Shown in pieces: positions 10,566-56,674 of a DNA stretch of 64,000 bases. The notes beneath the pieces were generated by a model. It ran no database searches, had not been told where the DNA came from, and was given only the letters and a program-made list of their open reading frames with translations. Within the stretch, counting starts at the first letter, position 1; the number at the start of each line of letters is the position of its first letter. The translations under genes were made by a program, and so were the position numbers. Source of the DNA: Candidatus Woesebacteria bacterium (GTDB taxonomy: Bacteria > Patescibacteriota > Microgenomatia > UBA8517); assembly GCA_963784785.1 (NCBI GenBank), contig CAWASW010000007.1:66394-130393 (forward strand), read 5' to 3'.

Positions 10566-11601
10566 CTTGGAAAACCACCACCCATTCCGCTGAATACTGA
10601 TTTTGTAGTTGTAGTTGTCCTAGTATTTGTAGTACCTGTAATTACAGTTTGGCCCTCTGTAAGACCTGATTTAATCACAGTTTCAGTATCAGATGAAATC
10701 CCAACTTCGACATCAATATTCTTTTCTTTACCGTTTGACATAGTCTTTGCCTGTGTCTCTCCATTTGCTGTAATTAGACTTCATCAAGCTTTATATTAAC
10801 TCCATAGCTTGTGACGTTTGATGAGGTTGTACCAATCCTATCAACTGTTGCAACAACACCTGTAAAGGTTTTTTCCGTAATTGAATCAAAAGAGATAGTT
10901 GCCTTTTGCCCAATTTTTATTTTTGGAACATCAGTTTCACTAGCAGTTACATTAACAACAGGTGTCGCGTTATTCTCAATAGTTGCAATGCGTTGAGCAG
11001 TTATGACCATTCCTTCAACAATATTTATATTCGAGATTGTTCCAGTATAGGGAGCCACAATAACAGGCGAAGTCTGTTAATAAGAAAGCCTAGCCTGAGC
11101 TAAATTATTATAAGCATTATCATTTGCTACCTCTGCTTTTGTTCTGGTTTCCTTCATGGCCAAGGTTTCATCCGCTTCGTGACCTTTTATTTGATCATAA
11201 GTATATGCAATAGAGGCCTGAGTTGAACGATAGGTATTTAAGGCAGACTGTAAGCTTGTATATGCTTTTACATTTGCCAGTTCTCCATCTGTATCAGGTG
11301 TTATTTCTGCTATCTTTTGACCTTTATATACTTTATCTCCATCTTTAACATAAACTTTTTTAACAATTCCAGAAGTACTGGTGCTGATTGGTAAAATACT
11401 TGTTGATAATGCTTTACCTGAAGCTGTAATAGTTGAGACTACTGTCCCCTTTGCAACTGTTGCTGTTTGATAACTAGTTTTAGCAACTGAATTCTTGCTT
11501 ACCGAATACCAGATACCACCTGCTATAAGCAATATAATTGATATAGAAACCTTCCAATATGTTTTAGCTAGTAATAAATACTTTTGCATCTCTTTCATCA
11601 T
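10562..11601 (-). pseudogene. HlyD/MacA-family periplasmic adaptor disrupted by an in-frame TAA (11077-11079) and a frameshift near 10775-10800
   Basis: Three consecutive pieces on the same strand: N-terminal TM plus coiled coil (11601-11080), barrel segment VAPYTGTISNINIVEG... in the same frame after TAA (11076-10777), C-terminal VEVGISSDTETVIKSGLTEGQTVITG in another frame ending ATGA at the ABC ATPase start. Confidence 0.6.
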
Positions 11602-13751: not shown

Positions 13752-14810
13752 TTAGAGAGCTAGTCCAAGTGAAATAAGTATCATCATTATTCCAAAACCA
13801 CTACCCAAGATCGTTGGCCACTCCACTCCGGTCACAGGTATCGGTGCAGACGTAGGAGAACTTGATGCGCCAGAACAGTTACAATTAGAGACAGATGAAC
13901 AATCAGGATTCTTGCATAAACCCCTGTAGCAGAATAAACCACTAGCACAATTAGAGTTGCTACCACATGTACCACCACAGGAATTTGGCTCATTGTTAGG
14001 AGTAGGAGTTGCCGTTTGAGTTAGACATCTGCAATCTGTTCGGCTGCTACAGTTAACATTTCTACACAATCCGTTATTTCCTTTTAGATTGTTATTATCA
14101 TAGCATGCTAGACCTGAAGAACAAACAGTTTGTGGATTCGTAGTTAGGTTGCATGATTGGTTACAAGAGACAGTTATAGGAGTTGATGTAACTCTTGGAC
14201 TGGATGTGGCAATCGGAGTTGCGCTAGCGCTACAAATACAATCGCTGTCATTTACGCAGGCAAGTTTTCTACAAAATTTGTCTCTGAGCTTTGAATCTGT
14301 TGCACATATTAACCCATCTGGACAATCAACATTTGTGTTGCATGAGCTATTACATCTACTAGGAGCAGCCGTAGGAGTTGCTGTTGCATGTGCAGTTGCT
14401 GTCGGAGTAGGAGAACTTGGGCATGCAGTCATATTTGAAGTCCAAGAGGCACCATTACAACAGTAGTTACGATCTTTACAAAACTCGATTCTACCTTTCA
14501 TCTGCAAATTACAAAGACTATCTTTTGGAGATCCGTCTGCCTCAGCTGGATGACAATTCCATAGATGATTCTCCGCTCCAGCCACAGGGCACTGCTCAGT
14601 ACCCGCGACAGAACATTGAGGAACCGAAGCCTTTTCAGATATATTCTGCTGCTGTCTCACTAAAATAATGCCAGCTACAACCCCAATAGACAAAACTACG
14701 ATTCCAATAATCGCACTGACTATTTTCCAATTAGTCTTTTTTACAGACTTAGAATTAGATAACCCGACAACTTTTAAATTACTTGAATCCATTACAGATA
14801 ATAATGTCAC
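13752..14810 (-). CDS. Cys-rich membrane-anchored surface protein with three Cys-rich modules and Thr/Pro linkers
   Basis: N-terminal signal anchor, repeated C-x-C modules (e.g. NSCGGTCGSNSNCASGLFCYRGLCKNPDCSSVSNCNCS), C-terminal hydrophobic segment; paralogous to 55907-56674. Confidence 0.6.
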   Translation of the reverse strand: MTLLSVMDSSNLKVVGLSNSKSVKKTNWKIVSAIIGIVVLSIGVVAGIILVRQQQNISEKASVPQCSVAGTEQCPVAGAENHLWNCHPAEADGSPKDSLCNLQMKGRIEFCKDRNYCCNGASWTSNMTACPSSPTPTATAHATATPTAAPSRCNSSCNTNVDCPDGLICATDSKLRDKFCRKLACVNDSDCICSASATPIATSSPRVTSTPITVSCNQSCNLTTNPQTVCSSGLACYDNNNLKGNNGLCRNVNCSSRTDCRCLTQTATPTPNNEPNSCGGTCGSNSNCASGLFCYRGLCKNPDCSSVSNCNCSGASSSPTSAPIPVTGVEWPTILGSGFGIMMILISLGLAL

Positions 14811-14872: not shown

Positions 14873-15217
14873 ATGACAAAATACAGAGAATTTTTCGAAA
14901 GAATGATAACTAGCGAAAAACAAAAATTTGATGCGTTTACAAAACTTCATATGCAATTCAGTATGGACCAAGACAAACTCCAAGAGGAATTTAACACAGA
15001 GGGAACAAAGATTGTTGCAATAATACGCGAGTGGGAAAATAAATTATGCTCCACAAGCGACAAAGCAGGATACGGAGGCTACACCTCAAATCTTTCTGAA
15101 AAATTTTGGGGTGAAATCAGAAAATCCTTCCCACTAATTGATTATGTTGGAGTGATAGTTAAGAAGAAAAGCGCGGATCCTGAAACGGGGTTCAGGATTA
15201 ATAAAATCAATCTTTAA
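14873..15217 (+). CDS. Hypothetical protein
   Basis: ORF only. Confidence 0.35.
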   Translation: MTKYREFFERMITSEKQKFDAFTKLHMQFSMDQDKLQEEFNTEGTKIVAIIREWENKLCSTSDKAGYGGYTSNLSEKFWGEIRKSFPLIDYVGVIVKKKSADPETGFRINKINL

Positions 15218-16650: not shown

Positions 16651-17076
16651 TCATTTTAATATTTTAACATCTTTTGGCTCTAAGCGTTTTACCCCTAATT
16701 TATCAAAATCCTTATCGAATGACACTACAATCATTTTTTTTGATTGTATTTCTGGATTTGAAGCTATTAATGCGTCTATAAACTTTACTGAAAAATTTGA
16801 ATATAAATCCAATGTTTTTGAAAAATCATACTTATCAAAAACTTTTAAGTTATTTAACTTTAGGATACTTGACAAACCCCTGTCTATATTGTTCTTAGAT
16901 TCATTATAAGACGAGCCAAGTACCCATACAATTTCTGATAATACTGTTGATGATGTGAAGGCTTTAATTTTCGAGTTTTTGACTAAGTTTAAAAATTTGT
17001 GACATTCATCAAACACTTTTTTGTCCTCTAGTTCCAATACTCTAATAAAAATGTTGGTATCAATAAAATACTTCAT
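16651..17076 (-). CDS. PIN-domain toxin (VapC-like)
   Basis: MKYFIDTNIFIR start and conserved acidic residues typical of PIN; overlaps the upstream antitoxin gene. Confidence 0.8.
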   Translation of the reverse strand: MKYFIDTNIFIRVLELEDKKVFDECHKFLNLVKNSKIKAFTSSTVLSEIVWVLGSSYNESKNNIDRGLSSILKLNNLKVFDKYDFSKTLDLYSNFSVKFIDALIASNPEIQSKKMIVVSFDKDFDKLGVKRLEPKDVKILK

Positions 17077-17315
17077 ACTCTTTTGTAATGAGTCTGCATA
17101 TCTTCTCGAGCCTTTAAGGCATTCATTCCTTTTGGAGCTCTACCAATTGGAGCAATATCTAAGATATCTAATGTTGGCTCAAGATTTATAGACTTCTTTG
17201 TCATAGAAATTGCAATTTTAGTATATGGTTTCATACCAAAAAATTTTCTCATTTCAAAAGGTATTGTAACTTGGCCTTTTTGAGTTAATGTGGCTAATTG
17301 CATTTGCATATACAA
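17073..17315 (-). CDS. AbrB/SpoVT-fold antitoxin (VapB-like)
   Basis: Swapped-hairpin signature TLTQKGQVTIP; 4-bp overlap with the PIN gene. Confidence 0.7.
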   Translation of the reverse strand: MYMQMQLATLTQKGQVTIPFEMRKFFGMKPYTKIAISMTKKSINLEPTLDILDIAPIGRAPKGMNALKAREDMQTHYKRV

Positions 17316-22145: not shown

Positions 22146-22562
22146 TTATTTAAGTTTAGCCCACAATTTCAGATCAGCAACCCCCTTTGGGGTAGAAATA
22201 TTCAAAAAATGCTTGTCATATGTAACAAGTGTTGAATTTGTCTCTATTGCCGAAGCTGCAATCCAAATATCATTGGTCGGGATTGGTTTTCCCTTCTTTA
22301 GCAACTCAGAAAATATCTTGCCGTATATTTTTGCAGTATTAATCTGAATAGAAGCTCTGTTAACAAAAATATTATTTAAAAATAAATCAAGGATTCTTTC
22401 ATTTACTTGTAATTTATTTCCTTGATAAAAACCTACATAGAGTTCTCCAACCACAATAGTAGGTACAAATACGATATCGCTATTTTTGATTTGATCTATT
22501 ATTTGCAAATCTCCTTTTACAAAGTTACTATAAGCGTTTGTATCAAGTGTAATCGAATTCAT
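22146..22562 (-). CDS. PIN-domain toxin (VapC-like)
   Basis: ITLDTNAY... start and PIN acidic residues; directly follows the antitoxin gene. Confidence 0.8.
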   Translation of the reverse strand: MNSITLDTNAYSNFVKGDLQIIDQIKNSDIVFVPTIVVGELYVGFYQGNKLQVNERILDLFLNNIFVNRASIQINTAKIYGKIFSELLKKGKPIPTNDIWIAASAIETNSTLVTYDKHFLNISTPKGVADLKLWAKLK

Positions 22563-22847
22563 TTATTTCCAATCTTCGGGGTATATCTTCTCATTAGCCT
22601 CATCTGTCACTCGATTTAATTCATCAGCTTCTTCTACACTCATAGTACCTGCTAGAGATAAAAGATCAGCTTTCGCTTTTCTCTTGATGGTTTCAGTGAT
22701 TAAGTGATTTTCATAGGCAGTATAGACACCGATTGGATTATTATTAGACAATACAACGACGCCATCTTTGGCTGTCTTGGCTTTTTTGATAACAGCCTTA
22801 AAATTTCTTTGAATTTCTGTGGTTGTAGTGTAGATTGGCATTAACAT
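22563..22847 (-). CDS. Phd/YefM-type antitoxin
   Basis: N-terminal pattern (T..E...NF...I..A......VVLS.N..P.GV) typical of Phd/YefM; adjacent to PIN. Confidence 0.7.
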   Translation of the reverse strand: MLMPIYTTTTEIQRNFKAVIKKAKTAKDGVVVLSNNNPIGVYTAYENHLITETIKRKAKADLLSLAGTMSVEEADELNRVTDEANEKIYPEDWK

Positions 22848-33423: not shown

Positions 33424-33849
33424 TCATTTTCTGCCAGTACTTCCAAAGCCCTTTTCGACTCTTGAAGAATCTGACAAATCTTCTACAAGTTCGATTGTTG
33501 GTTGTTTTGCATTTTGTAATATTCCCTGTGCAATTTTATCTCCCACTTCAATTTTATAGTCATTTCCACTCAAATTAATCATTATAATTTTCCACTCTCC
33601 TCTGTAACCTGAATCAATCACCCCACCCATAACATGCATTCCTTTAATTGCCATACTACTTCTGTCTCTGATTGATACAAAATAATCGTTAGGTATTTCT
33701 GATGAAATTCCGGTTGCAACAGCATAGTACTCCATTGGTATTAAAGTTTTCACTTCAATTGAATATATTCCAAACCCAGCGTCATCAGTATGTGCATACG
33801 ATGGCATAATTGCCTTCGAGTCAAGAAGTTTAAATTTTAGTTTGTTCAT
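33424..33849 (-). CDS. dut: dUTP diphosphatase
   Basis: dUTPase motifs GVIDSGYRGE and C-terminal GFGSTG. Confidence 0.85.
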   Translation of the reverse strand: MNKLKFKLLDSKAIMPSYAHTDDAGFGIYSIEVKTLIPMEYYAVATGISSEIPNDYFVSIRDRSSMAIKGMHVMGGVIDSGYRGEWKIIMINLSGNDYKIEVGDKIAQGILQNAKQPTIELVEDLSDSSRVEKGFGSTGRK

Positions 33850-34262
33850 TAAAATGATGTTTTAATTCCTACTTTTTTAAAATCAGAATCGAGTGTAAAA
33901 ACTTCATTAATTTTATAATCTTTAACCAAATTAAAAATTGAAGCGTCTACAAAGGATAGCTTATGTTCTGCAAATTTAATCATCGTCTCTGTAGATTTAT
34001 CAAACATAACTTCATCAACATCTAGCACTTTCAGCTCGCCAGCTTTGATAGCAGTATCAATTTGGTTTATTATTTTCTTCAAAACAACCTTTCCCAAAGT
34101 ATAAATAACTCTTGTATAAAGTTCATTCAATACATAATAAGAAGTATAAAATTGATATCTGTTATTGACATACTCGTCAAAATTACTTGAAGCCTCTTTA
34201 TGTTTGATCTCATTTTTAACAAAAATTGCCAAATAAGCACTAGTGTCAATAAATATTTTCAT
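33849..34262 (-). CDS. PIN-domain toxin (VapC-like)
   Basis: MKIFIDTSAY start and PIN acidic residues. Confidence 0.75.
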   Translation of the reverse strand: MKIFIDTSAYLAIFVKNEIKHKEASSNFDEYVNNRYQFYTSYYVLNELYTRVIYTLGKVVLKKIINQIDTAIKAGELKVLDVDEVMFDKSTETMIKFAEHKLSFVDASIFNLVKDYKINEVFTLDSDFKKVGIKTSF

Positions 34263-42104: not shown

Positions 42105-43277
42105 TTATTTAAGACCTTTTGTAATCCTGATTTTGGAAAGAAGTGAGGGATTTGTAAGTAAATTTCCACAACCTCTGACAACACAGGTCAATGGATCTTC
42201 TGCAATGTGAACTGGCATTTTTGTTGCATCTGCTATTGCTTTATCTATACCATGAATTAATGCCCCGCCTCCTGCAATATAAATTCCTTTTTCCATAATA
42301 TCTGATATTAATTCTGGTGGCGTTTCCTCTAAAGTATCTGATATTCCCGTTATAATCTCATGAATTATTGGGCCCAATGCTTCTCTTATTTCTCCTTCAG
42401 TTAATTTTACTGATCTTGGAAGTCCAGTTTCCAGATCTCGTCCTCTAATAACATGCACTTTTAATCTTTTAGGAACAGACTCTTCATAAGCAGTGGCAGA
42501 ACCAATTGAAATTTTGACTGCTTCAGCCGACGGCTGGCCCAACAATACAGAATATTTTAATTTAACATAATTTATTATTGCTTCATCCATTTCATCCCCC
42601 GCAACTCTTAGTGATCTGCCAATTACAATTCCTCCAAGCGAAATCACTGCAATTTCGGAGGTCCCTCCACCGATATCAACTATGAAATTACCTTCTGGAG
42701 AATCGACATCAAGGCCAGCTCCAATTGCAGCTGCCATTGGTTCCTCTATTAAATCAGCACGTCTTGCACCAGCGTCAACTGCAGCGTCAGCTACGGCTCT
42801 TCTTTCTACTTCTGTCACTCCAGATGGTATCCCTATAACAACGTGGGGCCTTGGAATACGAGGGACATTTCCACCTGTCTCGTGAACTTTCTTTATATAG
42901 TATGTAAGTATTGATGAAGCTGCATCAAAATCAGCAATCACACCATCTCTGAGTGGTCGGACAACCTCAATAGTTGAAGGAGCACGACCAATCATCTTTT
43001 TTGCAGACAATCCAATTGCCAAAATTTCTTTTGTTTTTTTGTTTCTGGCTACAGCAGAAGGTTCACGTACAGCGACACCTTTATTCTTTATAAAGACAAG
43101 AGTATTTGCAGTTCCTAAATCAATTCCTAAATCAGTTGAAAAATAGCCAAAGATTAGATCTATTGGATTTGGTATACTTTTGAAAACTGACATGATTCCA
43201 GTAATTTTTAACATATTATTTTTTATAATTCCGCTAGTTTTCTTAAAAAACACATCTGAACTTTTTGAATTCAACAA
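42105..43277 (-). CDS. mreB: Rod-shape-determining protein MreB (annotated start gives a ~40-aa N-terminal extension; true start probably internal)
   Basis: Actin-fold motifs GIDLGTANT, DIGGGTSE. Confidence 0.9.
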   Translation of the reverse strand: MLNSKSSDVFFKKTSGIIKNNMLKITGIMSVFKSIPNPIDLIFGYFSTDLGIDLGTANTLVFIKNKGVAVREPSAVARNKKTKEILAIGLSAKKMIGRAPSTIEVVRPLRDGVIADFDAASSILTYYIKKVHETGGNVPRIPRPHVVIGIPSGVTEVERRAVADAAVDAGARRADLIEEPMAAAIGAGLDVDSPEGNFIVDIGGGTSEIAVISLGGIVIGRSLRVAGDEMDEAIINYVKLKYSVLLGQPSAEAVKISIGSATAYEESVPKRLKVHVIRGRDLETGLPRSVKLTEGEIREALGPIIHEIITGISDTLEETPPELISDIMEKGIYIAGGGALIHGIDKAIADATKMPVHIAEDPLTCVVRGCGNLLTNPSLLSKIRITKGLK

Positions 43278-45192
43278 GATTGTAACACTTTACGCCTTTA
43301 CAGCCTTGATTGTATCAGCTTGGGCAATACAGTCAATTCGAATTAAAAAGTTTATATTTAAAAAAACAATTTTAGATATTCCCCTAGTTATCTATTTATC
43401 TATTTATTTAACCAGCTCTCTATTGTCAATCGATCCAAGAACATCATGGCTTGGTTACTATTCAAGGTTTAATGGAGGTTTAGTTTCGCAAATTTGCTAT
43501 GCGTTACTTTATTGGGCCTTCGTCTCACACATGTCAGCGAAGCAGTCCCTATACGCTATACGCTATTCCCTAATCTCTACAGCAATCGCCGCAGCTATGG
43601 CTGTCGTAGAGCATTACGGGATATTTACTACCTGCGGGATAATGGGATTTGGTTACAGAGAATCTTGCTGGGTCCAAGATGTACAAAATAGAGTTTTTTC
43701 AACACTTGGTCAACCTAATTGGCTGGCAGCAACGATCACTGCGTTAATACCAATGACTTGGTATTTCGCAATTTTTGATTTTAAATTTTTAATTTTTAAT
43801 AAATTGAATTCAAATTTTAAATTTCAAATTTCAAATTTAATCTGGCTTGTTATTTCAATGCTATTTTTTGTCACGTTGCTGTTTACCAAATCTCGATCAG
43901 GGCTACTTGCTTTTGGGATTGAAGCAATTGTCTTCTGGGGATTTTTATTTTTAAGAGAGAAAAATAAGTATTTAAAAGAATTTATATTTATCTTTTTATC
44001 ATTTAATTTTTTAGCATTTATATTTTGGTTTTTACCAAGCATCCAATTAACTAACAACCAAGCTTCTGTTTCAAGTGGCCCCGCCCTTGAGACCGGGGGT
44101 ACTGAATCTGGAACTATTCGTAAAGATGTTTGGCTTGGTGCGATTGAAGTTTTTAAACACTATCCTATTCTTGGAACTGGACCAGAGACTTTTGCTTTTA
44201 GTTTCCCTATGTATAAACCAGTCGAACACAACTTAACTTCTGAATGGGATTTCATTTACAACAAAGCACACAATGAATATCTAAACCTGCTTGCAAATGT
44301 CGGGGTCCTTGGCTTTCTTTCATATTCATTATTAATATTAGTATCAATAAAACAAATCGCAGGTAATTTACAATTTACAATTTACAATTTACATTCAATT
44401 TCTAATTTGAAAATTAACAAAAATGAAAATTCATTGATAATTGATAATTGGAAATTGAGAATTGGATTGCTTTCCGGTTATATTGCAATCCTCGTTACTA
44501 ATTTTTTTGGATTTTCTGTAGTTCCTGTATCACTTTTATTTTTTCTATTTCCTGCGTTAACAGTACAAAGTACACAGTACGAGGTACTTAGTAATGGCAG
44601 ATCAAAGCTCGACGTAAGTCAGGTGATTGGTGTTATCTTTGTACTATGTACTATGTCCTATGTACTATTTTGCATAGCAAAATATTGGCAGGCTGATGTT
44701 TACTACAACAAATCAAATTTTGACAAAGCTATTTCAATTTCTCCAAACGAACCAAACTACATTTCAAAATTAGCCCTATCCGATAACTCAGTCGAAACAG
44801 CGTTAAAAGCGGTTGAAATGAACCCTTATAACCAAAACTCTCGAAAAATTTTAATCAGTAATTTAGTCAAGAGTTCGACTAAGGACTCAAACGGTATGAA
44901 ACTTGCTGAAGCAGTCATCAAAAATGGTATTTTATTATCACCAAACGATCCAAGACTTTACTATCAATTAGGCATTTTACAATTAAGAATTGGTGAACAA
45001 AAAAGTGGAATCGATAGTCTAATTAAGTCAACTTTACTCAAACCAAACTATAAAGAAGCAAGATTTGCACTTGGCGCCACTTATTTAGATGTTAAAGAGT
45101 TTTCTAAAGCAAAAATTGAACTTGAATACATACTGAAGAATATCGACCCAAATGACGAGTTGACTAAAAACTATTTGAAAGAACTATTGTAG
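43180..45192 (+). CDS. O-antigen-ligase (Wzy_C)-like polytopic membrane protein with C-terminal TPR repeats
   Basis: Multiple TMs; KAHNEYLNLLANVGVLGF matches the Wzy_C core; C-terminal TPR-like helices; its 5' end overlaps the annotated mreB start on the other strand. Confidence 0.6.
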   Translation: MKTDMIPVIFNILFFIIPLVFLKNTSELFEFNKIVTLYAFTALIVSAWAIQSIRIKKFIFKKTILDIPLVIYLSIYLTSSLLSIDPRTSWLGYYSRFNGGLVSQICYALLYWAFVSHMSAKQSLYAIRYSLISTAIAAAMAVVEHYGIFTTCGIMGFGYRESCWVQDVQNRVFSTLGQPNWLAATITALIPMTWYFAIFDFKFLIFNKLNSNFKFQISNLIWLVISMLFFVTLLFTKSRSGLLAFGIEAIVFWGFLFLREKNKYLKEFIFIFLSFNFLAFIFWFLPSIQLTNNQASVSSGPALETGGTESGTIRKDVWLGAIEVFKHYPILGTGPETFAFSFPMYKPVEHNLTSEWDFIYNKAHNEYLNLLANVGVLGFLSYSLLILVSIKQIAGNLQFTIYNLHSISNLKINKNENSLIIDNWKLRIGLLSGYIAILVTNFFGFSVVPVSLLFFLFPALTVQSTQYEVLSNGRSKLDVSQVIGVIFVLCTMSYVLFCIAKYWQADVYYNKSNFDKAISISPNEPNYISKLALSDNSVETALKAVEMNPYNQNSRKILISNLVKSSTKDSNGMKLAEAVIKNGILLSPNDPRLYYQLGILQLRIGEQKSGIDSLIKSTLLKPNYKEARFALGATYLDVKEFSKAKIELEYILKNIDPNDELTKNYLKELL

Positions 45193-51306: not shown

Positions 51307-52296
51307 CTATTCAAAAACTGGTTGACCGATTTTTGGAATATAAGTTTTAAATTCCTCGCGCTTTACTAATTTTTTATCTTCAAATGTCATTTTAACCACT
51401 AATCCTTTTTTAGTTTCTTCACTCCACATTTGATCAAATATAAAGTTACCCAAAGAATAATACACAGGGGCATTCCCGATTATCTCAAAATTTTGCACCC
51501 AATGTGGATGATGGCCAATTATTATATCCGCCCCACTTTCAATCATTTGTTTTGCAACTATACGCTGTACGCTATTCGCCACTGCCTTGTATTCTTCCCC
51601 CCAATGTGGACTAGTAATAAGAACATCGACTAATTTATCACTACTAGCGATTAGATCTTGGTCACTTGTAGTAAATTTATTTGAGACTAAATCAAAACCT
51701 AAAAAACCAAACTTAACACCATTCTTTTCAATTATCTCCAAGTTCTCATAACCCACTGATTTAATTCCAATATTACTTAAGTTTTTCTTAGTCTCTTCAA
51801 AACCTTTGTTACCATAATTATTAGTGTGATTGTTTGCTAAGGTCACGATATCAATACCAGAATTAGTCAACCCCTGAGCGATCTCAGGACTGGTGCAAAA
51901 CGAGAAGCTTCCTTTATACTGCCTAGGACAGTCCTTAATAACTGCATTTTCAAGATTTCCAAAAGTAATGTCGGCATTTGACAAAAAGCCTTGGACATTT
52001 CTAAAAGGATATAAATAGTCATTTTTATCAATCGCCTCCCCCATTACAGAGCGGCCAAGCATGATATCACCAGTGAAAATAAGAGTTGCTTGGTCAGTTG
52101 GAGGATTAGTTAATTGGACAAACGAAACTGGCACAAGAGCGATCAAAAACGCAATTAGGGAAGAAATTAGATTATTAAGCATGATATAATCATACCACTC
52201 TAATCGCCTAGATAAGAAAATCTTGTCTATGTATATGATGCCTAGATAGCTCAGTGGTAGAGCACCAACTTGGTAAGTTGGGGGTCGTGAGTCCAA
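51307..52296 (-). CDS. CapA/PgsA-family metallophosphoesterase (poly-gamma-glutamate capsule-type)
   Basis: N-terminal TM, GDIMLGR, FGNLEN, GHHPHW motifs. Confidence 0.8.
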   Translation of the reverse strand: MDSRPPTYQVGALPLSYLGIIYIDKIFLSRRLEWYDYIMLNNLISSLIAFLIALVPVSFVQLTNPPTDQATLIFTGDIMLGRSVMGEAIDKNDYLYPFRNVQGFLSNADITFGNLENAVIKDCPRQYKGSFSFCTSPEIAQGLTNSGIDIVTLANNHTNNYGNKGFEETKKNLSNIGIKSVGYENLEIIEKNGVKFGFLGFDLVSNKFTTSDQDLIASSDKLVDVLITSPHWGEEYKAVANSVQRIVAKQMIESGADIIIGHHPHWVQNFEIIGNAPVYYSLGNFIFDQMWSEETKKGLVVKMTFEDKKLVKREEFKTYIPKIGQPVFE

Positions 52297-54875: not shown

Positions 54876-55889
54876 TTACTTAAGTCTTGCAAGGTGGGCA
54901 TCAACCATGAGGGCTACTAACTCTTTGAATTTTGTTTTTGGCTCCCAGCCCAAAATTTCTTTGGCTTTGGCAGGATTACCAATTAGAGGTCCTGTTTCAG
55001 TAGGCCTGATAAACCTTTTATCAATTGTTACGTGATCTTCATAATTTAAACCTACATATTTATATGCCTCTTCACATAATTCTTGAATTGAATGTGTCTC
55101 CCCTGTTGCAAGTACAAAGTCATCTGCTTTTTCAGCTTGCATCATTCTCCACATGCCTTCTACATAATCACCTGCAAAGCCCCAATCTCTTTTTGCTTCC
55201 ATGTTTCCAAGTTGTACTTTTCCATCCTTTACTATTGGTTCACCCTCTTCATTTAAATGATTTGAGGTTCTAATTTCAAGCTTTGCACAAGCTGCTGCAT
55301 AAGTTACCTTTTGAGTTACGAAGCCTAGATGTCTTCTTGGTGACTCATGATTAAACAAAATTCCATTTGTGGCAAACATGTTGTAACTCTCTCTATAGAT
55401 CTTTGTCATACAAAAAGCATAAAGCTTGGCTGCAGCATAAGGATTAGCAGGATTAAATGGAGTTGTTTCTGTCTGTGGGATTTCTCTAACCCATCCAAAC
55501 ATTTCAGATGAACTTGCTTGGTAGAATTTAGTCTTTGGATTAACATCAAGTGTGGCGTCAAGTACCCTATGTGCTCCAATTCCTGTAATCTCTGCTGTGT
55601 GAATTGGTTGTTTAAATGATTCTGATGGATGAGATTGAGATGCAAGATTATAAACTTCATCTGGCTCTACCTTTTGGATAATTTCTCTTAAGGATACTGG
55701 ATCTAATAAATCTCCTTGAAATAATTTCAAACTTTCTTGAATATGACCAATGTTGGCATAGTCCTCATGAGATGTTTTTCTAACTATGCCTGCTACCTCA
55801 TACCCTTTGCCTAAAAGTAACTCAGCCAAGTACGATCCATCTTGACCTGTGATCCCTGTAATTAATGCTTTTTTGTTAGCCATTGACAA
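54876..55889 (-). CDS. gmd: GDP-mannose 4,6-dehydratase
   Basis: ALITGITGQDGSYLAELLL, catalytic S...YxxxK region. Confidence 0.9.
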   Translation of the reverse strand: MSMANKKALITGITGQDGSYLAELLLGKGYEVAGIVRKTSHEDYANIGHIQESLKLFQGDLLDPVSLREIIQKVEPDEVYNLASQSHPSESFKQPIHTAEITGIGAHRVLDATLDVNPKTKFYQASSSEMFGWVREIPQTETTPFNPANPYAAAKLYAFCMTKIYRESYNMFATNGILFNHESPRRHLGFVTQKVTYAAACAKLEIRTSNHLNEEGEPIVKDGKVQLGNMEAKRDWGFAGDYVEGMWRMMQAEKADDFVLATGETHSIQELCEEAYKYVGLNYEDHVTIDKRFIRPTETGPLIGNPAKAKEILGWEPKTKFKELVALMVDAHLARLK

Positions 55890-55906: not shown

Positions 55907-56674
55907 ATGATGTATATAATGGCATCATTAAAATCAAGAAATCTTCTAATCTTAGGTCTCATTCTAGCAATGTTTGTTGCCCTTCCACTTTTTGTCTGGT
56001 CATTAATTAATATAAATTTGGATATCAGAGAGAGAGCTTTTATACCTCAATGTATGCCACGGCCAGCTTGTCTTGATGAAAGACCTCATCCATGTCAGAT
56101 ATCAGAACCAGAAGCTGGTTGGTGCCCTGCTGGTACTGCCACCGCAGTTTCTACAGCCACTGCAATTGCAACAGCAACATCAATTGCAACTTCGACAGCA
56201 ACAGCATTACCAACAGATAGTCCAGTTGGAGGAAATGATAATGCAAATTCTTGTGGAGGAACCTGTGGCAGTAATTACAACTGTAAAGCAAATTTATATT
56301 GCTATAGAGGGTACTGCAGAAATCCATTCTGTTCAGAAAATAGCACCTGTGACTGTTCAAATGTTGGTGCTACTCCAACTGTTAAACCAACAGTTAAACC
56401 AACTGTCAAGTCATCAATCAAACCATTTGCAGGTCTTAGTTCATCAAGCCCAAAGACAACTGCAAAATCGACATCTGTTGCATCAGAATCATCTCGACCA
56501 TTAGACAAATTTAATACAGATTCTGTTACAACCCCTAAAAACATGTTTTGGTTAAATAACGCAATGTATATCTTCTTAGGATTCTTGTTACTTGTCATCA
56601 CTACAATTTATTATGCTGTAAAAAGAAACAAGAGTAATAGTATTCCCCGAATAATGCCACCTACAAATATCTAA
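55907..56674 (+). CDS. Cys-rich membrane-anchored surface protein, paralog of 13752-14810
   Basis: Signal anchor, Thr/Ala-rich linker, module SCGGTCGSNYNCKANLYCYRGYCRNPFCSENSTCDCS, C-terminal TM. Confidence 0.6.
   Translation: MMYIMASLKSRNLLILGLILAMFVALPLFVWSLININLDIRERAFIPQCMPRPACLDERPHPCQISEPEAGWCPAGTATAVSTATAIATATSIATSTATALPTDSPVGGNDNANSCGGTCGSNYNCKANLYCYRGYCRNPFCSENSTCDCSNVGATPTVKPTVKPTVKSSIKPFAGLSSSSPKTTAKSTSVASESSRPLDKFNTDSVTTPKNMFWLNNAMYIFLGFLLLVITTIYYAVKRNKSNSIPRIMPPTNI

Follow-up and report, generated by a model that had tools for sequence, protein, structure and literature searches.

A conserved eight-cysteine module shared by two families of anchored envelope proteins in Microgenomates

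To our knowledge, the molecular make-up of the Patescibacteria envelope is almost unknown, though the lifestyle of these bacteria depends on it. Two kinds of described systems come closest to the proteins reported here. The first is that of small extracellular disulfide units, such as the DPY module, a two-disulfide unit with the cysteine spacing Cx5Cx5Cx4C found within an extracellular structural protein (PMC12723725). The second is the LPXTG sorting signal (TIGR01167) and its sortase (PF04203); sortase is near-ubiquitous in Microgenomates, and an MdbA-like oxidoreductase and VKOR are enriched in the Candidate Phyla Radiation (CPR) (Meheust et al. 2019; PMC6744442). The genes that we studied lie in a stretch of 64,000 nucleotides of contig CAWASW010000007.1 from a Candidatus Woesebacteria genome (assembly GCA_963784785.1), hereafter the window, whose G+C content is ~34% and even throughout. 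Two of them encode Cys-rich proteins, A (open reading frame (ORF) 13752..14810, minus strand) and B (ORF 55907..56674, plus strand; window numbering). Both are conserved envelope proteins with extracytoplasmic Cys-rich parts. They belong to two different families and share a small eight-Cys module, which also occurs on sortase-linked proteins of related genomes.

The shared module proposed by the first-pass annotation is real, with three copies in A and one in B. BLASTP aligned residues 272–323 of A with residues 110–161 of B, with 30 identities over 52 positions (58%, E=8e-18), and the two other modules of A gave weaker alignments with B (E=4e-4 and 0.015). A module profile likewise marked three stretches in A. 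The module consists of 35 residues with eight Cys (C1 to C8), and the canonical spacing 3,5,5,4,4,5,1 is found in the third module of A (CGGTCGSNSNCASGLFCYRGLCKNPDCSSVSNCNC; 13875..13979, minus strand; detected by BLASTP and by regular expression and profile) and in that of B (CGGTCGSNYNCKANLYCYRGYCRNPFCSENSTCDC; 56252..56356, plus strand; detected by BLASTP against A and by regular expression). Variant modules insert residues after C2 and C4, as do the two divergent copies of A, both matched by regular expression and profile: module 1 (14232..14354, minus strand) has the spacing 3,5,5,10,4,5,1 and module 2 (14025..14165, minus strand), the spacing 3,9,5,12,4,5,1. The latter variant was also present in five relatives. 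The canonical spacing was observed in 147 of 173 modules from relatives. In the 136 unique canonical copies, with the consensus CGGTCGSN(Y)NC(Q/K)(A/S)(N/G)(L/F)(Y/F)C(Y/F)xG(Y/F)CRNPxCxxDTDCxC, all eight Cys were invariant and ten non-Cys positions were kept at ≥94%; near-invariant positions are G3, T4, G6, S7, N8, N10, G20, R23, N24 and P25, and the mean column identity of the module is 72%. An exhaustive profile search over a library of 1.84 billion proteins, counted as cluster representatives, detected the module in at least 1251 of them at E≤1e-3 and in 393 at E≤1e-10. Such recurrence indicates that the module is not a chance pattern.

Wherever the source was credibly named, the module was confined to Microgenomates/Patescibacteria, in agreement with the lineage specificity suggested earlier. 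Among 64 GTDB loci, the titles named Woesebacteria, Amesbacteria, Microgenomates or 'Patescibacteria group' in 41 cases, just 'bacterium' in 5, 'uncultured Gammaproteobacteria' in 17 and 'Alphaproteobacteria' in one. The loci with proteobacterial titles are L008, L012, L013, L018, L020, L022, L027, L028, L031, L036, L055, L057, L061, L063, L067, L069, L070 and L048. In the four Gammaproteobacteria-labelled loci compared for synteny (L008, L013, L028 and L031), the genes around nusG follow the Microgenomates order, and in three of the four a gmd gene matches that of the window at E≤1e-180; the proteobacteria-labelled loci examined for protein content encode Microgenomates-type protein families. 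Because of this synteny and protein content, the Gammaproteobacteria and Alphaproteobacteria labels are probably wrong. The first-pass annotation had also proposed a check for family expansion in related genomes. Such a survey spoke against an expansion, since GTDB species representatives carry only 2–3 module genes per genome (two each in CP011214.1 and CP066686.1, three in DATFUL01).

The ORF of A was borne out, its longest form (352 aa) having a GTG start at 14810. Its true start is likely the ATG at 14792 (M7), since an exact public protein (P0001, 346 aa) begins there and homologues start with MADDIKVVGLS; the gene would then span 13752..14792 on the minus strand and encode 346 aa. The conserved N-terminus (14628..14792) is composed of a cytoplasmic segment KVVGLS..K..KTNWK, a transmembrane (TM) helix (14658–14723) that is the candidate anchor and a post-TM motif RQQQNISEKA (14628–14657). 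An eight-Cys N-domain that defines the family follows (14421..14615, residues 66–130); together with the three modules it accounts for all 32 Cys of the protein (8 + 3 x 8). Thr/Ala/Pro linkers connect these parts. The first of them had been misread in the earlier annotation as ATPTPT..., its actual sequence being PSSPTPTATAHATATPTAAP. The protein ends with a tail resembling a sorting signal (13755..13841), IPVTG-VE-WPT-ILGSGFGIMMILISLGLAL, in which IPVTG occupies residues 324–328 and is followed by 22 mostly hydrophobic residues up to the end, with no basic terminus.

A homologue search with A gave at least 250 proteins, every one of them unnamed or 'hypothetical', from named sources comprising Woesebacteria, Patescibacteria and Saccharimonadales; the counts given below for this family were taken over 120 listed members. 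Their plan consists of the N-terminus IKVVGLS..K..KTNWK with TM helix and RQQQNIxEKA, the eight-Cys N-domain, Thr/Ala/Ser/Pro linkers, an optional variable central cassette and a C-terminus of the form [ILV]P[VE]TG-xx-[WL]PT-..G.G.G..LAL. The N-terminal pattern was seen in 102 of the 120 members and the Cys module in 40; the remaining inserts are Fn3, SLH, DUF11 or unassigned. At every locus examined, the A-type gene comes just after the genes proS-HIT-yqeY-ybeY-holB/dnaX-ybaB-recR-hyp-cysS. A itself has the N-terminus, the eight-Cys N-domain, the PxTG-WPT tail and the cysS/hyp114 neighbourhood of the family (hyp114 is described below), and this family, positioned beside cysS, is single-copy. 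An alignment of the N-domain from 39 diverse members showed eight invariant or near-invariant Cys in the pattern CHPPE.DG...CN.AGRIE.CG...YCCP..GG.WT..M..C. AlphaFold2 predicted four short strands for the N-domain of A (predicted local distance difference test (pLDDT) 86.3). This domain had no match in Pfam or in a PDB sequence search, and its model had none against PDB by Foldseek (best E=3.6, TM-score 0.2).

Protein B was also borne out, with a longest form of 255 aa from 55907; read from MASLKS, the gene spans 55919..56674 on the plus strand (251 aa). Its 12 Cys belong to a small four-Cys head and to the single eight-Cys module. The successive parts, all on the plus strand, are a signal anchor (..ALPLFVWS..) with the post-TM motif NINLDIRERA (55943..56038), both common to B-family members; the head, CMPRPACLDERPHPCQISEPEAGWC (56051..56125), also present in P0121, P0123 and P0125; the canonical module; a Thr/Lys/Pro/Ser stalk (56357–56560); a C-terminal TM helix (56561–56620); and a conserved cytoplasmic tail, KRNKSNSIPRIMPPTNI (56621–56671), in which IP[HR]I.PPTNI recurs in the B family and at its loci. 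A homologue search with B yielded 153 proteins with a plan unlike that of A, namely the ALPLFVWS signal anchor, a variable head, one canonical module, a stalk, a TM helix and the IP[HR]I.PPTNI tail. The head may be missing, or it may be a four-Cys mini-domain, a DsbA/Thioredoxin_4 domain, a cohesin or extra Cys modules; at the head position, PF01323/PF13462 was found in P0122 and P0126 and PF00963 in P0130. In ~20 loci, the interval from a divergent gmd to secE-nusG-L11-L1 holds a gene of the B type or another module gene, and B carries every B-type feature, including this position.

A and B thus represent distinct families, each with its own synteny, N-terminus, heads and anchor, and the genes of the window are positional orthologues within housekeeping neighbourhoods. 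They had been described as two paralogous proteins; paralogy holds for the module but not for the whole proteins, since outside the module they have in common only a short post-TM motif, [ND][IV]xE[KR]A (NISEKA in A, DIRERA in B), found in 102 of the 120 A-family members and in many of the B family. This motif sits a few residues past the N-terminal TM helix and is unlike a classical AxA signal-peptidase site; a role in processing or in recognition is possible. The overall topology proposed earlier was upheld, both proteins having N-terminal anchors, Thr/Ala/Pro linkers and C-terminal hydrophobic segments, although the latter differ: A has the IPVTG-VE-WPT tail without a basic end and B a TM helix followed by its cytoplasmic tail. 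As the N-terminal anchors are positive-inside, the rest of A and B, including the module, is placed outside the cytoplasm. Metal-binding or cytoplasmic Cys clusters were rejected on account of this topology and of the fusions with DsbA and cohesin domains in relatives.

Pfam and NCBIfam scans of A, B and the isolated modules gave nothing at threshold, so that the family remained unrecognised at that level, as the first-pass annotation had stated. The resemblance to EGF that it had perceived did not hold: no EGF Pfam model matched A or B at E≤10, and among PDB sequences TGF-alpha and betacellulin gave E values of 0.27–0.5 over the C-terminal half only. The Pfam models DUF7107, Dickkopf_N and EB had no match in A or B either, and PF21164 (Dumpy_DPY) had none at E≤10 in A, B or the isolated modules 1 and 3. 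Searches of PDB sequences, with A or the profiles as query, produced weak matches only. The best for the module profile was 1oig, the Dumpy DPY (E=0.004), then the N-terminus of kiwellin (E=0.055). Among 108 module-bearing representatives, PF21164 was detected in 10 (best E=5e-9); in P0259 it reached 32.8 bits, against a gathering score of 27, over the stretch from C2 to C5-RN. The module profile also drew in non-CPR-type proteins made of tandem Cx5Cx5Cx4C units, which Pfam assigns to DUF7107, Dickkopf_N or EB. When the canonical modules were compared with these units by hhalign, module positions 8–31 matched with 96.6% probability (E=6e-10). Since this match was obtained and the units stand alone in tandem arrays, the 24-residue core of the module (C2–C5) would, as judged from profile comparison, be a self-standing two-disulfide unit of a broad kind already described, and to that extent the module is not unrecognised.

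The Dumpy DPY (PF21164; 1OIG, from the Drosophila apical matrix) has a C2–C5 spacing identical to that of the canonical module (5,5,4 in module 3 of A and in B; modules 1 and 2 of A deviate, with 5,5,10 and 9,5,12) and similar residues, xSDCxxxxxCxxGxCRxP. Both are extracellular (for DPY, PMC12723725) and form part of structural proteins, and both, the module by prediction, are disulfide-stabilised hairpin units. The CPR module differs by four more invariant Cys (C1, C6, C7 and C8) and the CGGTCGSN..RNP signature, and it occurs as a single unit or in 2–5 copies beside bacterial anchors, whereas DPY is present in hundreds of copies that alternate with EGF modules. Their likeness might reflect either homology or convergence. 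The bacterial repeats of the DUF7107 (PF23416), Dickkopf_N (PF04706) and EB (PF01683) types resemble the module in their core profile match, and Dkk N-domains were among its structural neighbours; however, these repeats form long arrays of four-Cys units and lack Patescibacteria anchors. The eight-Cys form that we interpret as clasped, with CGGTCGSN, was seen only in Microgenomates-type proteins. The kiwellin N-domain (kissper, 4PMK/4X9U), with an alignment of SSCNGPCRDLNDCDGQLICIKGKC to NSCGGTCGSNSNCQSGLFCYSGYC, was not a significant match in sequence and ranked second in Foldseek; it belongs to a plant protein with another C-terminal half and is a resemblance only.

AlphaFold2 predicted the module (module 3 of A, 66-sequence alignment, pLDDT 80.7) as a small disulfide-rich minidomain with a beta-hairpin at FCY/LCKN. 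The top neighbours of this model in PDB, according to Foldseek, were knottin, Dkk and kiwellin, with root-mean-square deviations of 0.4–0.8 Å over 20–23 residues only. The likeness to a disulfide knot perceived from the sequence was therefore recovered in kind, with knottin- and Dkk-type neighbours, although none of them was significant. Knottins (squash trypsin inhibitors, conotoxins and potato carboxypeptidase inhibitor (PCI)) also resemble the module in the PCI-like spacing of its first six Cys. The modules might be knottin-type protease inhibitors exposed on the surface; module 1 has a weak match to the carboxypeptidase A inhibitor family PF02977 (20.9 bits; full-length A, 14.9 bits), and squash trypsin inhibitors were among the top Foldseek neighbours. 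However, the PF02977 match is below the gathering score of 25, all Foldseek E values are ≥0.68, the conserved residues presumably match neither inhibitor reactive loops nor the inhibitory C-terminal tail of PCI, and the module is embedded between linkers whereas knottins are free secreted peptides. We regard such a function as highly improbable.

Four natural variants of the module lack both C6 and C8, and this joint loss suggests that these two Cys probably form a bond with each other. By elimination, C1 would probably pair with C7. The co-loss fits either a knot using C7 or a DPY-like core with an additional clasp; since the C2–C5 unit exists autonomously, the DPY-like pairing is favoured over the knotted one.

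The module occupies a characteristic place in the proteins that contain it, most of which combine an N-terminal anchor with one of several C-terminal anchor types. In every case it is the last folded unit before the anchor: the last module is separated from the PxTG-like motif by a median of 27 aa in the A family and 18 aa in other families, and from the TM helix of B-family proteins by a median of 74 aa. The heads with which it is associated include DsbA-like, cohesin, Fn3, SLH and DUF11 domains and further Cys modules. Across genomes, the domain content at A-type and B-type loci varies from no insert to Cys modules, Fn3, SLH, a lectin-like insert, DsbA or cohesin. The module is, in short, a mobile, Microgenomates-restricted, anchor-proximal unit.

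The best explanation of the whole, to which we assign a probability of about 0.5, is that A and B represent anchored families in which a clasped four-disulfide module serves as a pedestal in the wall zone. The N-terminal signal anchor would insert both proteins in the membrane, and their Cys-rich parts would fold outside by disulfide formation. A would be retained through a C-terminal sortase-type signal of non-canonical form, IPVTG-xx-WPT with a hydrophobic tail devoid of basic residues, and B through its TM helix with the short conserved cytoplasmic tail. The module itself would be a DPY/Dickkopf-like two-disulfide hairpin (C2–C5) clasped by extra bonds, probably C1–C7 and C6–C8, forming a rigid, protease-resistant pedestal beneath the variable heads. 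Its conserved surface might contact a conserved component of the cell's own envelope rather than a variable host ligand.

Its main rival is that the module could be a small carbohydrate-binding unit, hevein- or CBM1-like, that holds envelope proteins non-covalently to peptidoglycan or another wall glycan. Positions 9, 16, 18 and 21 are kept as Tyr/Phe, N8, N10, R23 and N24 are near-invariant, and positions 16/18 and 21/23 fall within the two hairpin strands of the model; the wall-zone position and the conservation across genomes would also suit a conserved self ligand. Nevertheless, no carbohydrate-binding module (CBM) or hevein Pfam model matched even at E≤10, the Foldseek neighbours included no carbohydrate-binding fold, and in module 3 of A two of these aromatic positions are taken by Ser and Leu. 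We know of no DPY or Dkk units acting as glycan binders. A glycan-binding role thus seems unlikely, if deserving attention.

The first-pass annotation had suggested, as a speculation, a surface or adhesion family relevant to episymbiotic attachment. Patescibacteria are episymbionts, and a lineage-specific adhesin, either the module or both proteins, would agree with the surface location and with the domain shuffling at the same locus, which is typical of interaction proteins. However, the module is among the most conserved parts (72%) and sits beside the anchor, the opposite of what is expected for the host-specific tip of an adhesin, there are only 2–3 copies per genome, and the A and B genes are set in housekeeping synteny blocks. 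An adhesion role for the module itself therefore looks unlikely, and we consider the adhesin explanation as a whole to have only a slim chance; the variable heads appear better adhesion candidates than the module. The Pam pilus, also considered, is unrelated.

The C-terminal anchoring of A has to be weighed separately. In 115 of the 120 A-family members, the protein ends with [ILV]Px[TS]G and a subsequent hydrophobic stretch; B has no such motif. The tail of A resembles the LPXTG signal in the pentapeptide, its position and the hydrophobic stretch that follows, but it differs from it in having no basic end and in the additional conserved WPT and GxGxG. In related genomes, a third module-bearing type has a canonical LPKTG...KKFKLI tail; at 8 of 9 loci the gene directly downstream encodes a sortase (PF04203, E 1e-19 to 1e-24, with the catalytic motif LQTCDPPGT). 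The sequences suggest a substrate and a sortase dedicated to each other in Microgenomates. The LPKTG/sortase loci are L022, L024, L040, L049, L059, L062, L063 and L068 (match ~6001 in most). Both tail types coexist in several genomes. As DATFUL01 combines an A-type gene (L044) with a sortase (L062), and sortase is nearly universal in Microgenomates (PMC6744442), sortase processing of A is plausible, at near even odds.

Several observations weigh against the pedestal explanation and its sortase component. No Foldseek match of the module to PDB was significant (best E=0.68, probability 0.63), the disulfide pairing is deduced from four co-loss variants and analogy, and the Gly/Asn/Pro conservation could, in so small a domain, be purely structural; sequence does not separate a pedestal from a ligand-binding role. 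Moreover, the module is missing from 80 of the 120 A-family members, which implies that it is dispensable for the core function of that family. Concerning the anchor, A ends in ...SLGLAL without basic residues, and the last six residues contain no K/R in 119 of the 120 members; TIGR01167 (cut-off 15.9 bits) does not match the tail of A but gives 23.2 bits with the canonical tail of the same lineage. Regular expressions and a hidden Markov model built from Microgenomates sortases detected no sortase gene in the 64-kb window, and none was located beside A-type or B-type genes at the loci examined.

The C-terminus of A might not be a sortase substrate, and could instead be a plain membrane anchor with a juxtamembrane motif or a signal for another, undescribed processing enzyme. 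Along with the non-basic tails and the failure of TIGR01167, this would account for sortase genes being found beside canonical LPKTG genes only and for the conserved WPT and G-x-G-x-G, which have no counterpart in classical signals. On the other side, known sortases accept variant pentapeptides such as (S/P)PXTG. In the A family, [ILV]Px[TS]G occurs exactly at the LPXTG position with ~22 hydrophobic residues after it, in a lineage in which hardly any member lacks a sortase (PMC6744442). A non-sortase anchor is in our opinion a serious possibility, if not the expected one. More tentatively, and on balance doubtful when all its parts are taken jointly, Microgenomates could possess an undescribed C-terminal sorting system that displays conserved envelope proteins made of CPR-specific parts, with the A-type protein as a core envelope component and not an accessory adhesin. 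Its signal would comprise [ILV]Px[TSA]G, xx-WPT and a Gly-rich hydrophobic tail without a basic end, distinct from the LPKTG/sortase pairs of the same genomes, and the displayed parts would be the clasped four-disulfide DPY-like wall module and the eight-Cys N-domain without known fold.

We found nothing specific in the literature on the module, the N-domain, the tail or CPR sortase substrates. The three elements are unannotated; profile similarity places the module, as a variant, within an already known class of small disulfide units. Two envelope families, a disulfide module, a candidate non-canonical sorting signal and a small domain without known fold are thereby newly defined, none of them with a Pfam or NCBIfam model. 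They offer handles for proteomics, for labelling with antibodies or in cryo-electron tomography and for sortase biochemistry in Microgenomates, and make annotation models possible for more than 1000 'hypothetical proteins'. By itself, the finding does not explain attachment or any other phenotype.

The gene next to A in the window, hyp114 (14873..15217, plus strand), encodes a conserved 114-aa predicted cytoplasmic hypothetical protein without Pfam match. All 10 loci compared, from different genomes, have it beside the A-type gene, always on the opposite strand and either upstream or downstream. As the two genes stay together through local rearrangement, hyp114 and A may be functionally linked. 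An operon of A with a two-component system was also considered and rejected: genes of a response regulator and a histidine kinase follow A in the window, but only about one in two A-type loci has them next to the A-type gene and other loci lack them, so that we do not regard them as functionally tied to A. Downstream of A, a MacB-type ABC exporter has its HlyD/YknX-type membrane-fusion adaptor split (10774–11601, minus strand) into a HlyD_2/biotin-lipoyl piece (11077–11601) and a HlyD_3 barrel piece (10774–11058), which form one 388-aa gene in the relative L002. The split may reflect pseudogene formation, a frameshift or an error of assembly.

On the other side of the window, the gmd gene (54876–55889, minus strand) encodes a GDP-mannose 4,6-dehydratase (PF16363, E=1.6e-114), and its start codon is ~17–30 bp from that of the divergent B gene. 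The divergent gmd/B-type pairing recurs in many genomes, with 27–140 bp in between. Judging from this arrangement, deoxyhexose synthesis is possibly linked to glycosylation of the Thr/Ser-rich stalk of B. The window also encodes a 670-aa membrane protein (43180–45192, plus strand) with a Wzy_C domain (O-antigen ligase-like, E=2e-19) and TPR repeats. Among enzymes of the Wzy_C type are protein O-oligosaccharyltransferases, whose targets are Ser/Thr residues of low-complexity regions rich in Ala/Pro; by analogy, the linkers rich in Thr/Ala/Pro in A and B are conceivable substrates of the enzyme. Another envelope-related gene (51307–52296, minus strand) encodes a CapA-like PGA_cap protein of poly-gamma-glutamate capsule synthesis (PF09587, E=1.6e-58). 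Finally, three PIN-domain, VapC-like toxin genes (16651–17315, 22146–22847 and 33849–34262, minus strand; PF01850, E about 1e-12) are set among housekeeping genes, two of them with a small upstream partner ORF.

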